Source: Octopus vulgaris (Eukaryota). From it: DNA of 64,000 bases. The stretch is from positions 44,144,001-44,208,000 of the forward strand of contig OX597816.1 in the NCBI GenBank assembly GCA_951406725.2. The letters run 5' to 3'. The notes under the pieces were generated by a model. That model saw only the letters and a list, made by a program, of their open reading frames with translations. It had not been told where the DNA came from and made no database searches. A program made the position numbers and the translations under genes. Shown one piece after another: positions 4,235 to 62,380 of this stretch (position 1 is its first letter; each line of letters begins with the position of its first letter).

Positions 4235-4425
4235 ATCCGAACAAGAAAGCACAAAAAAAATCACAACAACGCGAGGACGTGGAACAAATATAGTATTATT
4301 GGACGCTCAGGAAAGAAGGAAAGAAGGAGGGTTTAACGTTTCGAGCGGAGCACGTCGTCGGAAACATAAGAGAAGGAAAGATCCAGAGAAGGGAAGACAG
4401 AGGGGAAAAAATCGCCAACGGTACA
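4235..4425 (-). mobile_element. Short PLE-like terminal fragment with degenerate minimal HHR (4331-4365)
   Basis: Minus strand GTTT-CCGACGA-C-GTGC TCC GCTC-GAAA-CG-TT-AAAC. Similar layout to the elements at 30640 and 57768. Confidence 0.55.
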
Positions 4426-6857
4426 CATATATATTAGCGTATAAACATGTGGCTGAATCTGTGTTTGCTTCGAGATATATCGTTCCAAAACAAGATTTCA
4501 CATTTTTTGGGAAGCTTATATTTTCTTATGACGTCAACAAAATAAACATTAATTTGTCGCTTTCAGATCCGGCTTCAGATGTAACACAGCGTAGACCAAA
4601 ATGCTCATTGTTGCATTTATTTACCTCTCTTCAGTTCCTTCTTCAATTGCCATTGTATACGACCTTGTCTTTCATCCTCCTGCAATCGATAAAACAAGCA
4701 GCATTGGCTAATAATACAAGAAGAAGTTTCCATTAAGAATTTGGGGGCCATTGTGTTGTTAAGTAATGTATGAAATCATTACATTGATATTTATAACTAT
4801 GGCGCCTTACACACACAGCTTGAATAAGAACAACAGTCTTGTCATGACTGGTTCTGCAATATTTCTATCTCTCACGGAGTTCCGTACTTAATAATGAAAA
4901 AACTAAAATAAAAGCAAAACGAAAAAAAAAAAAAAAAAAACTAAAATAATATATATTTACCATGTCTCATTACACAAAATATCCTCCAGCTATTTACTTA
5001 CAATCTAACGTGCACGGGAACATTAGTAAAAAATACTAGCGCTGTTACTTGGTTTCTGTAATTATTTAGCCAATCCTCGTCTGTTTCAGTAGTACAAGTA
5101 TTGGAATGCAACGCTCCACTTTGCCTGTTCTTTTATTTCTTCATTTATTTTCATAGTTTAGTGGTTGAAGTCTGAAATATTGTTCTACGTGTATTCTCTC
5201 ACGGTATCATATACAGCCCTGATATAGACAGGGTCAGACTATTGAAACTAGATAATGTCATACTGCTGTCACAATATATGTCGTTGTTCTGAGCAGCTAT
5301 CATTTGATAAAGTTGACAATGTTGTTATGTCAAAGGGTTCAAATAGACTGAAAATAAAAACAAAATTTCTCCACCTCCGCCACACTTCTCTCTCTCTCTC
5401 TCTCTCTCTCTCTCTCTCTCTCTCTCTCTCTCTCTCTCTCTTTCACTCTCACTCTCTTACTCACTCAGTCTCTCTTACATTCGCTTTGCGCATATACAAA
5501 ACACTTTTATTCTCTCTCGCATACACGTACAGAAACCCCAACATCTTCTCTCACTCACACGTACAAACGCAGACATCTACTGCATATATAATATTTCAAT
5601 TCATCTGTGTATATATATATATATATATACTCGTGCAAAAACATATTCACGCTCTCAAGTTTGTATTTTCAAATAACTACTTATCTATCTATCTATCTAT
5701 CTATCTATCTATCTATCTATCTATCTATCTATCTATCTATCTATCTATCTATCTATCTATCTATCTATATGTCTGTCTGTCTGTGTCTCTGCCTATCTGC
5801 CTTTCTGTTTATGTATCTATTTATTTATTTATCGATCAATCGATTGATCAACCTATCTATCTCAAACATCTCCACTTCTCTCCCCATACACCCCATCTAT
5901 CTCTCTCGCTATATATATATATGTGTGTATATATATATATATATATATATATATATATATATATATATATATATGCATATATATGTGTGTATGTACCTAT
6001 GTATGTATGTGCGCATGTATGTTAGTGTGTGTGTGTATGCACACGCGGGGCCGGGCACATACTAACGAACAGACATACACACACGTTCACAAACACATTC
6101 ACGGACACACGCACACATATATTCACAATGCGCGTGCGCACACATAGACACACACACACACACACACACACACACACACACGCACAAATACGAACATACA
6201 AACAAAGACACATACACACATATATACACATACAAATACAAAAATTGAAATGTACCGAATTTGGAGCCGAGGACACACACAATGTTTATGCCTACCTATG
6301 AATATCATCACTCGCATACACACACAGAAAAACATATATACACATACACACACACACACACACTCATTCATATGCACGAACGTACGCTTACACAAATAAA
6401 TATAAGTCTCCTATTTTTTTTCAATTATTGCGTTGTTTTCTCATAATGTAAAACGTGTTGTCGATTCTATCAATAAAATAATATGGGCTATGATGTTTAG
6501 AACATGTTGCAGTTTGCTTTTGGAACCTTAAATATGATAACAAATAATGTGTGGAGAATATGCCTATTGAGATTCCGAGTCTATTGTATTATGTAATATA
6601 TTTGTTTTACTGCAGGTGCGCTCAGAAAGAGTATATTTTCAATATTTCTTATATAATGTTGTTTTTCCAAATATCAACGTTAAAACAACATACATACATG
6701 CATGCATACATATGTATATATATATTTATGTTTGTATTTATATATAAACACAATATAGATATATAGACACATGGATATATACATACACTTACACAGACAC
6801 ACACATATGTGTATAATGTATAAATATTTATATATGTTTATATACACAACATATATA

Positions 6858-7060
6858 GGGGCAGGCGTGGCTGTGTGGTAAGAAGCTCGCTTTCCAGCCA
6901 CTTGGTTGCGGGTTCAGTCCTACTGCTTGGCACCTTGGGTAAGTGTCTTCTACTATAGCCTCGGCCTTCCAACGCCTTGTGACTGGACTTGATAGACGGA
7001 AACTCAAAGAAGCCGTCGTATCTATATATATAAAACTGAGAATGTGTCTCTGTCTGTGTG
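6858..7060 (+). mobile_element. SINE family A, 5' half
   Basis: A-box-like GTGGCTGTGTGGTAAG, B-box-like GGGTTCAGTCC, CORE-like GGCACCTTGGGTAAGTGTCTT. Confidence 0.88.
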
Positions 7061-59409: not shown

Positions 59410-59650
59410 TTTCACATTCTCCAATTCATACAGTTACAGAAATTAGTCGCGACCTCACTAGTGCCAAGCTGTATCGGCCTTTTCCCTTCGCTTGGATAAC
59501 ATCGGTGGCGTGGAGAGAGTAGCTTATATGCATGGGCAACTTTTGATCTTCCATAAACACTCTTGCTCGGACTCGTGCCTCGGAGAGGAACTTTCAAGAT
59601 ACAATCCCATGGTCATTCATGACCGAAGGGGTCTTTACCCTATTTTTACC
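59410..59650 (+). mobile_element. Probable SINE/LINE 3' end with RTE-like tail
   Basis: Ends CCCATGGTCATTCATGACCGAAGGG...TTTACCC, a stem-loop plus short repeat tail. Confidence 0.45.
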
Positions 59651-59744
59651 CTGTAGGTATGTATATTTGTGTATATATATATATATATATATATATATAT
59701 ATATATATATATATATATATATATATATATATATATATACTTGT

Positions 59745-62380
59745 ATATAGTAACACACAGGGAGGAATTTCGATTATCCGAACGTGGTGAGTTGCAATAC
59801 TAAAAATATTTACATGTATTTAAATAAATATTTGCATAGCTTTAATACATTTTAAAATATATTTTATATTGTGACTGTGTTTGTCGACCGGTTTCGCTTT
59901 CGCTAATCATGACATTGAAAGTATTGTAATTTCGTATTTTCTTAAGAAGATTTTAGTCCATGTTGTGTGTGGAGAAATTAACGAATGAGTGATTCAACAA
60001 GTAGAAAAATCTAAGAGAGTTTAGTAATTGGTGATCGTTATTATAAGAGGAAGATAATTATTTCTGTTTTTAAAAAGTGATTCATCCTCATTGTCGTAGT
60101 CAGTTGGTGCTTCTGTGAATCGTATTTTTCAGCAGAATTCCGAAATATTGTCTTTAATTTCATTCTGGTTAAATCTTCGTGGGGTTGGGGTAAACTTTAA
60201 TCCTATAGCTAGTAAACTGATTTTTTTTGCAGCTAGAGTTTTCTTTGATAAACTTATTACTTTGAGTTTCTCTTATATGCTTTGTTTCAACGTATGTCCC
60301 TGTTTCTCTCAACGCGGTCTAAAAAATGTTTACTGTAGAAGTCATCAGTGATTCGTTGAAGTTATCAGGGTTATTATTGTTATTAATTATATTAGGACTG
60401 TTGGGAGACTGATGTTGTTGTCTGGGTAAATTGGTTGGAAGTACGTGCTTTAGGTTTCTTCGTTAGAATAAATCGTTGGGATTCTTAATTATGTTTGAGA
60501 TGCTGAGGAGTTAGTTTTGCTGTCTAGGTAAATAAGCTGGAATTCCGTAGGTTGAGTTTCCTTGATGGGGAGTAGAAGTTCCTTGGACGTTACTAGTTTC
60601 TGGGGAGAAATAGTTACGCCTAACCCTAGGTTGGTTTCTTCTAGTATTTCTTATTACTGAGTTGCCACTATTACTAGATTGAAAACGGTTTACTTCCACG
60701 TGAGAAGTTAGTTGTGTGTGTTTGTGTTCTTTTAGATGCTTATAGTTTGTTTTTGCTCTGGATTTTTTTCAGGAAGGAGTTATCTGAAATATAATCTCTA
60801 TTACACTGAGTTTCGAAACTAAGGACGAAATTAACACTGTTTTCCTCCCGTTGCAGGGAATTTATTTCTTCCAGCTCACAGCTGCCCTTCCATAGATTTA
60901 TAACAGCTTCCAAAAGTTGTTCATCAGTATGTTTAGTGAGTTCGGTGTACATTTCTTCATCGATCGCTTTATATTTTTGCTCGTTATTCGATGCTCTAAA
61001 TTTAAGTAACTCAATCTCTATTTTCATTTTCTCTAGTGCTAATTTCTCCCTGGCTGTCTTTGTTGTTCGGGCTTTTCTGAGATTGGTTTGATTTGTAGTT
61101 TGCGTGGGGGAATTAATGGTGCTGAGTTAATCCATTTTCATATATTTCTGCATTATTATTATTTTTTATTATGTTAGAGCGTTATGGTTTTGGGACTAAA
61201 TATGGCTAATGCGGCTATTAATTAAATGGGCTGACATTGAAATATTTTCATTATGGCTTAGGTATTTGGGTGATAATTCTTTTTCAAAATTGTTCATGAA
61301 AACTGAGTGCAATGTTCTGCATAGTTCGTTCAAATTTTGACTAACCTTCTCAGTAGATCGTCTTCTCTATTCATTTTCAGCTTCTTCTCTGGTGCAGTAA
61401 CTTAATCCACAGATTTTGTTAGAATAAATAAATTTGAGTTACTTGTGTGTAATTCCCTCAATATGTCCTCGTTGATAATTTTATCCGATGTGTTTATGGT
61501 AGGTTTCGAGGCATTTTCCGTTCACGTGTGGTAAATAGTAGTAAAACAAAAAGAGGAATTGCGATTATCTCCACGTGGGGTGTTCAAATATCACAAATAT
61601 ATACATGAAATAAAAGAAGTAAAATGCAGCTACTTTACATCATTATATATGTTTTTAAATACATTTTATATTGTGTTTTTCGACCGGTTTCACTTTCGCT
61701 AATCATGACATTGAAAGTATTGTAATTTTAGTCCGTGCTGTGTGTGGAGAAATTTACAAATGACTGATTCAACATATAGAAAAATCTAAGAGGAGGTAAC
61801 TGGTGATCGTTATTATTGGGGACGGGGGAGGTAATTGCTTATCTTTCTAGGAGGTGATAATATAAACAAAAAGTCAAAAGGTAAAGTAATGAGTTGAAAT
61901 ATGTACAGTGCTGGGTATATGATCATGAATTAAAATATATATTAAGATCAAAGTTGGTTATGCGTTCATATTTAGACGTGTTCTGCATTTTTCGTTGAAC
62001 AATTTTTTTTATTTAAAGTTCCTGTTATAAAAATTGTTTCTTTACACGCTGAGATGAGGAAAACTGTGAAGTTTGGTTGGATATTATCTTCACATCTCTC
62101 TATGTATTCACTCAAAGGAATTTATGTGTATTGCGGGAACCGGATGTGTTCCTTATGTAGTGTGGTTCTTCATTTTAATGGCATACTTGTCTTTTCTATA
62201 TAGTTATGCCCACAACCTCAGCAAGTTATAGCATAAATTAGATTCTCGGAAGCACGAATCTTCTTAAGAAAATACGAAATTACAATAATTTCAATGTTAA
62301 GATTAATGAAAGTGAAACCGATCGACAAGCACAATATAAAATATATAAAAACTATGTAAAGTCCCTGCATTTTCTTTCTC
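59745..62380 (-). mobile_element. Penelope-like element, partial tandem with inverted 5' pLTR, RT deleted
   Basis: Direct repeats at ~59762-60045 and ~61553-61816. ORF remnant from ATG 61514 including KVISLSKKTL....ISLL..GLKFTPTP. GIY-YIG remnant SENLIYAITC.GCGHNYI..T...L..R...H at ~61950-62255. Inverted pLTR piece at ~62257-62346. (TA)n on both flanks. Confidence 0.9.
59882..59914 (-). ncRNA. 33-nt minimal hammerhead with A3-U8 core (AUGAUUA)
   Basis: Minus strand TGTC-ATGATTA-GC GAAA GC-GAAA-CCGG-TC-GACA. Repeated at 61678-61710 (-) and degenerate at 62295-62327 (+). Confidence 0.75.

Follow-up and report, generated by a model that had tools for sequence, protein, structure and literature searches.

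Hammerhead motifs with altered cores in a broken Penelope-like element and its likely relatives in the genome of Octopus vulgaris

Penelope-like elements (PLEs) carry hammerhead ribozymes whose function, in the words of a published account, "is still unclear". The question of which elements bring such motifs into a genome, and whether they still cut, is raised by a stretch of 64,000 nucleotides from Octopus vulgaris (assembly GCA_951406725.2, contig OX597816.1, positions 44,144,001 to 44,208,000; hereafter the window), in which a sequence-only reading had marked ten hammerhead-shaped motifs. Our answer, which we hold to be probable as a whole, is that these are type I hammerheads with a palindromic stem III, three of them in the terminal repeats of one broken PLE (family B) and the rest likely in truncated or non-autonomous relatives, which would borrow PLE proteins; that source elements would cut as RNA dimers; and that in one abundant repeat (family A) cutting would be attenuated by a U at core position 6 (U6). 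The system is a known one with core variants, U6 in family A and A3-U8 in family B, that are probably undescribed and were both missed by the sequence-only reading.

The order of parts claimed for the ten motifs is present in all of them: each has GAAA (GAAG at 9284), the palindrome assigned to it, and U-H between a hammerhead-like core and the complement of stem I. This is the type I order (stem I / CUGANGA / stem II / GAAA / stem III / UH / stem I), followed in full by the motif at 31193; stems are weak or broken in several others, and partly broken at 4331, 61678 and 62295. GAAA is intact in nine of the ten motifs, and stem III is a perfect palindrome in eight, counting A15.1-U16.1 (the exceptions are 9284, with G-U, and 62295, with CCGA). 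An intact CUGANGA core is found in three (9284, 9692 and 31193, all CTGATGA), and the other cores are altered: CCGACGA at 4331, CTGTGGA at 30733, CTGTTGA at 57858, CTAAACA at 37773, ATGATTA at 59882 and 61678, and AAGATTA at 62295. Only 31193 combines an intact core, GAAA and a closed G-C stem II.

The window is AT-rich (~35% G+C) and full of repeats, with 99 rows of tandem ones and several families of dispersed ones, so that chance matches in such DNA have to be considered; motif counts were compared with those in 60 local dinucleotide shuffles of the window, made in 1-kb blocks. An intact core with a stem I of at least 4 bp occurs three times against a mean of 0.03, and none of the 60 shuffles reaches three; the frequency is thus above that in shuffled sequence. 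With at most one core change and a closed stem II there are five motifs against 0.33 (0/60 shuffles reach this), the fifth of which, at 303, lies outside the ten and is chance-like. The strictest descriptor finds one motif against 0.03 (2/60 shuffles reach it), and family patterns are matched twice against 0.00. What speaks for chance is the loosest descriptor, with 32 matches against 15.8 in shuffles: about half of the loose parses are therefore noise, and a decayed copy can be trusted only if it belongs to a family or has strong stems, the motifs at 4331, 61678 and 62295 passing loose parses or none. Given the intact cores, the family patterns and the location in PLE pseudo-long terminal repeats (pseudo-LTRs), chance is refuted for the motif set, its probability being negligible in our estimate, and single decayed copies rest on family membership.

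The ten motifs amount to eight insertions and about six families, that is, one insertion per 8 kb in place of the one motif per 6 kb that had been put forward, with intact cores at one per 21 kb. Several families are present, but the stems, which had been called unrelated in sequence, are in part related: 30733 and 57858, alike at 31/36 nt, belong to one family, of which 4331 is a distant relative, and the last three motifs lie in copies of one pseudo-LTR. Most genomic hammerhead copies are decaying relics. In the Rfam search of the window no hammerhead family was found among the 150 of 282 rows listed, nor in two focused scans, and the matches are microRNA noise driven by microsatellites; the Rfam hammerhead models may omit the minimal, palindromic form of the PLEs.

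For the last three motifs the carrier could be recognized. They lie in a 2.6-kb Neptune-like PLE remnant (Table 1), where two direct and one inverted partial pseudo-LTR frame pieces of protein, with (TA)n at both outer ends. The endonuclease piece, read from 61954-62250 with X at the stops, has 253 relatives at E <=0.001 (phmmer; best 8.5e-17); GIY-YIG was found in 8/8 of the relatives scanned, with the nuclease C-terminal, and RVT_1 too in the five long ones. When 150 of the relatives were searched against the window with tblastn, matches were found solely at 62005-62253 and 60093-60263; these same queries gave no match for a reverse transcriptase anywhere in the window, and no PLE protein beside the other seven motifs. 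Pfam missed both the degenerate GIY-YIG and the N-terminal piece. In the CCHH finger of GIY-YIG both C and the first H are kept, the second H having changed to Y.

The clade was judged from motifs and architecture rather than a tree; on these grounds the GxKF motif, the C-terminal nuclease, the linker finger of the relatives and the (TA)n target point to an element of Neptune or Nematis type. The Hydra clade is argued against by the GxKF motif, and Naiad by the order of endonuclease, then pseudo-LTR. As described by Craig et al. (2021; PMC8557442), the Neptune and Nematis PLEs and Hydra-1_oBim share with family B the C-terminal GIY-YIG, CxxC between GIY and YIG, GxKF, direct and inverted pseudo-LTRs, the (TA)n target and a hammerhead near the 3' end. 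Family B differs in that no reverse transcriptase was found and in that the CX2-5CxxC linker, common to Neptune and Nematis, is missing from the window, where the inversion has severed it, while it is present or near-present in close relatives such as P0004, P0014 and P0017.

The core of all three family B hammerheads has A3 and U8, a Watson-Crick swap of C3-G8; because it is common to all three, the swap probably predates the insertion. Covarying 3-8 pairs are reported as active in vitro (Perreault et al., 2011; PMC3088659), and in a published pairwise mutational scan rescue at 3-8 came from the G-C swap only. Judged by eye, an upstream TTTC could form a pseudoknot with the GAAA loop of family B, but the fold computation favours a different hairpin.

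The claim of a PLE origin thus holds firmly for 59882, 61678 and 62295, with their GIY-YIG and N-terminal remnants, pseudo-LTRs and (TA)n. Since PLE protein is found only beside family B, the other families are linked to PLEs by resemblance, through the match of their architecture to the consensus of Cervera and De la Peña (2014; PMC4209133). The PLE hammerheads described there share with the window motifs the type I order, the short stem I, G10.1-C11.1, the palindromic stem III, dispersed single copies and the dimer model, as well as a U-rich leader, the extra base after A9 and before 10.1 (in family A) and opposite-strand pairs 100-700 bp apart. They differ in having A6 in all 56 representatives, where family A has U6, and C-G, U-A or U-G at 3-8, where family B has A3-U8; stem II of 45-63 nt, in four of the window motifs, is a further difference. 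The setting first proposed, non-coding units of 150-500 bp at microsatellites, is seen in part. Among the motifs with definable unit boundaries, to which 9284, 9692 and 37773 do not belong, family A and 31193 agree with it, whereas the last three motifs lie in the 2.6-kb coding remnant. Six of the ten motifs have a perfect repeat of at least 20 bp no more than 300 bp away, and the median distance to a microsatellite is 176 bp, against 501 bp for random places, a modest association (p = 0.046 for eight insertions).

Family A, a repeat of 150-170 bp, has two copies in the window, each with a minimal hammerhead carrying U6 (Table 1). Its abundance and variation were followed in contigs of four sequencing runs, aligned on 57770-58200 at 80% likeness (3457 placed in run X1, 2965 in X8, and 723 and 93 in the others); this stretch of family A is the one covered by sequencing-run data, which are contigs only. 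In X1 the hammerhead bin reaches a depth of 553,079, where the unique flank has 15-34; in X8 it reaches 348,590, where locus-exact contigs have ~7. This gives a ratio of hammerhead to unique depth of 16,000-48,000. By contig depth the copy number is roughly of the order of 10^4, with the reservation that depth added up over contigs does not count copies and runs too high where the hammerhead is all that subfamilies have in common; two copies in 64 kb are in line with this order. The hammerhead bin is 7-21x deeper than the body of the unit.

At position 6 (57887) no difference stands among the 40 of 70 rows listed, which include rows with a best share of ~29%; C or G at this position could sit among the 30 further rows. 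As we read the tally, A6 lies below 6% in X8, because all four A>T places tallied in that run are other positions; hidden A>T places number one in X1 and two in X14. We therefore observe U6 in most of the aligned copies of family A, in an alignment whose placement at 80% likeness on a U6 copy can exclude A6 subfamilies. The other core positions show no difference among the rows listed, and position 17 varies (A in 44-84%). The fourth pair of stem I is C-G in 91-100% of the depth, at both positions, against A-U at 57858, a compensatory change; covariation in family A consists of this one pair, and family B has three copies only. Between the two window copies of family A, 31/35 nt of the hammerhead are alike, against 83/120 elsewhere in the unit (p = 0.015). 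The inverted copy at 57651-57700 and the hammerhead at 57858 are probably the same insertion. Adjoining family A at 57965-58113 is a second high-copy repeat of ~150 bp, with a depth of ~54,000 in X1 and opposite-strand joints in three runs.

Metagenome assemblies contain 76 loci (L001-L076) of the same architecture, found with a pattern left free at position 6. These are PLE minimal hammerheads of host animals, many preceded by an inverted partial copy like that at 57651-57700. All 76 have A6, a count that includes many near-duplicates and comes from few assemblies; flank homology between these loci and the window motifs was not found. In viral contigs the family patterns had no matches, and no PLE relatives were confirmed in viral and prokaryote contigs. 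As to a Naiad origin of family A, the 3' motif is absent from the supplement text of Craig et al. (2021; PMC8557442).

How might such units spread? In the mechanism that we propose, the units outside family B would borrow a PLE reverse transcriptase and GIY-YIG nuclease in trans and insert at microsatellites, be they (TA)n or (TATC)n. Two RNA copies of a source element are predicted to form a double hammerhead by pairing of their palindromes; by analogy with published PLEs, this structure would cleave after position 17, probably at a slow rate or aided by the protein of the element. Published PLE hammerheads cut poorly even as dimers. The Poseidon element PAc of Anolis carries its hammerhead in a pseudo-LTR, as family B does. 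Experiments on the Anolis hammerhead showed that it needs the element protein and that insertion in vitro proceeds without its cleavage; RNA ends were not seen at the cut site (PMC11167929). U6 in place of the conserved A6 would likely lower cutting while keeping the fold, and lowered cutting may leave uncut RNA as template for insertion and spare host transcripts. CUGA mutants were low in the published mutational scan; the A6C variant cuts slowly in Mg2+, less so in Mn2+ (PMC3088659; PMC7151607). As a tentative suggestion, family A may have spread to tens of thousands of copies with U6 fixed and the hammerhead under structural selection, as a tuned-down or protein- or Mn2+-gated ribozyme, or as a fold that does not cut but serves the PLE protein as a handle.

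Several observations weigh against this account of borrowing, dimer cutting and attenuation, besides the reservations on depth and placement given above, the modest microsatellite association and the reliance on resemblance for the families other than B. The dimer folding that had been claimed is recovered for 31193, 59882 and 37773, where the energy of the free dimer equals that of the double-hammerhead fold; for the other four of the seven tested (9692, 9284 and both U6 copies, 30733 and 57858) the free dimer does not match the double-hammerhead fold, and in the constrained dimer of 57858 stem I is lost. The fold z of the U6 copies, -1.5 and -0.1, is in neither case better than shuffles. Conservation of the hammerhead in family B is not significant (31/33 nt alike between B1 and B2, 192/234 elsewhere; p = 0.06), and cleavage, with the RNA ends and circular RNA that would follow from it, is a prediction.

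A reading with some claim to be considered, though we find it doubtful, is that U6 was a plain loss of function in a founder copy that was then amplified, so that the family A hammerhead is dead and its fold no longer selected. It agrees with the low values of CUGA mutants, with the predicted U6 monomer, in which the core strand pairs with the A14-G16.2 strand to give a non-hammerhead fold, with PLE insertion in vitro proceeding without cleavage, and with published Naiad PLEs that reach high copy number without canonical hammerheads. Against a dead founder stand the hammerhead bin, so much deeper than the unit, its better keeping between the window copies and the compensatory pair in stem I, which are few independent events. 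That the short units are non-LTR retrozymes replicating as circular RNAs from tandem arrays is unlikely in our estimate: their sizes of 150-345 bp fall within the reported 51-972-bp range, monomers have been described and retrozymes have been proposed to derive from PLE pseudo-LTRs, but no head-to-tail array of a hammerhead-bearing unit occurs in the window (the 101-bp duplication before 31193 has no hammerhead), and the contigs of the four runs, which drop rare forms, contain no back-joint in family A. Tandem arrays of retrozyme type are thus unsupported. Non-LTR retrozymes (PMC7229834; bioRxiv 10.64898/2026.07.22.740005) share with these units the short non-coding form, the type I hammerheads and the proposed descent from PLEs; the tandem arrays and circles described there were seen neither in the window nor in the family A contigs.

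It had further been suggested that intronic copies could cleave host pre-mRNA, so that many active ribozymes of diverse families would cut host transcripts. For this speak the three intact cores, one of them fully canonical, the published depletion of Xenopus retrozymes in introns and, as a weak hint, the depth of family A relative to the neighbouring repeat, 55-83 in two runs guessed to be RNA against 10-14 in X1 and X8. No RNA-end piles at family A are listed in the contigs, which cannot settle their absence. None of 150 window reading frames matched Pfam at E 0.001, and no host gene was identified; these frames come nearly all from the 224 listed, those covered by another scan and those in known repeats being excluded, and small exons could be missed. 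Because no host gene was identified, most cores (7/10) are altered and the monomers lack stem III, and with PLE hammerheads that are weak or protein-dependent and show no RNA ends at the Anolis cut site, host pre-mRNA cleavage finds no support, and we regard it as very unlikely.

The 4331 unit ends at a (TA)n-like array (4132-4219). The hammerhead at 9283..9372 is probably decayed and has no firm base to stem II. The 9284 (-) and 9692 (+) units have their 5' sides facing the same (TA)n tract, 9564-9600, and point away from it. In the motif at 31193 the cut is predicted after 31269. Further hammerhead-like pieces were noted at the edge of the window, where a minus-strand CTGATGA half faces a plus-strand GAAA half (1-66; broken) and a CTGAGGA motif has a damaged 3' half (124-165), and at 57375-57418 (-) and 58804-58890 (+), where CTGANGA cores with GAAA-CCGA/CCGG-like tails and poor stems may be decayed copies or chance.

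Table 1. Hammerhead motifs and the units that carry them, by position in the window
Feature	Position	Strand	Details
Decayed minimal hammerhead, distant family A relative	4331..4365	-	core CCGACGA (U4C); stem II broken; CG palindrome
Hammerhead, intact CTGATGA	9283..9372	-	G at 15.1; CATATG palindrome; stem I 5 bp; poorly closed 61-nt stem II; fold z -0.2
Hammerhead, intact core	9689..9770	+	stem I 9 bp (three G-U); CCGCGG palindrome; weak stem II base
Family A unit	30636..30800	-	75% identical to 57763-57926
Family A minimal hammerhead	30733..30768	-	core CTGTGGA (U6); extra A; stem II GAGC/GCTC; CG palindrome
Non-coding unit, 345 bp	31119..31463	+	between two (TATC)n arrays; 5' end duplicated at 30986-31086
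Sole fully canonical motif	31193..31275	+	stem I 6 bp; CTGATGA; long stem II; CGCG palindrome; fold z -2.3
Decayed hammerhead	37773..37864	-	core CTAAACA (G5A, G8C); strong 63-nt stem II; CGATCG palindrome; stem I 5 bp; fold z -3.1
Inverted, scrambled partial copy of the 57858 hammerhead	57651..57700	+	also U6
Family A unit, outlined by contig depth	57785..57934	-	very high copy
Family A minimal hammerhead	57858..57895	-	core CTGTTGA, U6 at 57887; fourth stem I pair A-U
Neptune-like PLE remnant, 2.6 kb (family B)	59752..62382	-	between (TA)n 59672-59739 and 62383-62461
Pseudo-LTR copy B1	59752..60044	-	hammerhead 59882-59914: A3-U8 core; 2-bp stem II + GAAA loop; CCGG palindrome
PLE N-terminal piece, GLKF motif	60093..60263	-	tblastn to RT+GIY-YIG (reverse transcriptase and endonuclease) protein P0055, 47%, E 7e-9
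Pseudo-LTR copy B2	61560..61816	-	hammerhead 61678-61710: A3-U8 core; stem I broken at third pair
Broken GIY-YIG endonuclease, C-terminal type	62005..62253	-	LIY-x-x-x-C-x-x-C...YIE
Inverted partial pseudo-LTR B3	62257..62380	+	decayed hammerhead 62295-62327: A3-U8, U4A, CCGA

Other repeats in the window include a Tc1/mariner-type transposase remnant at 1029-1970 (-) (Pfam DDE_3, E 1e-17) and a 400-bp dispersed family of ~80% identity, which we take to be like a short interspersed nuclear element, at 23024-23408, 26419-26840, 27301-27701 and 55471-55835, with shorter pieces at 2176-2448, 6855-7071 and 48339-48467. A second abundant family, of 170-185 bp, is found at 35670-36072, 51697-52116 and about ten further places, as tandem pairs in places and often beside (ATA)n. 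Several C-terminal fragments like those of long interspersed nuclear elements, with long (ATA)n tracts, lie in 38500-45300, and 42052-42713 is 74% like the inverse of 56052-56694.

PLE hammerheads as such are in the literature, as are their palindromic stem III, the dimer model, their dispersal in thousands of copies and the targeting of (TA)n. A canonical hammerhead has been tabulated for Hydra-1_oBim, a PLE of Octopus bimaculoides (PMC8557442). The natural core variants U3-A8 and A6C affect the same two sites as here (PMC3088659; PMC7151607), with the difference that the 3-8 swap is A-U in the octopus and that A6C comes from one phage ribozyme, whereas U6 marks a repeat family of ~10^4 copies. 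A3-U8 and U6 are absent from the hammerhead table of PMC8557442 and the text of section 8 of PMC3088659. The 2026 repeat annotation of Octopus vulgaris lists Penelope families, and the words "ribozyme" and "hammerhead" are absent from its main text. Literature listings on hammerhead U6 and on octopus hammerheads hold nothing on U6 or A3-U8. The set of Lünse et al., reportedly of ~150,000 PLE-linked hammerhead variants, may include either.

The presence of a very-high-copy family with a changed core beside canonical families in the same genome makes the function of PLE hammerheads testable, and suggests that searches with a CUGA-fixed descriptor undercount PLE elements. If the U6 fold is indeed selected, family A, together with the A3-U8 pseudo-LTR, would amount to a natural experiment on the cutting versus the folding role of PLE hammerheads, and CUGA-based searches would miss the commonest PLE hammerheads in some animals.

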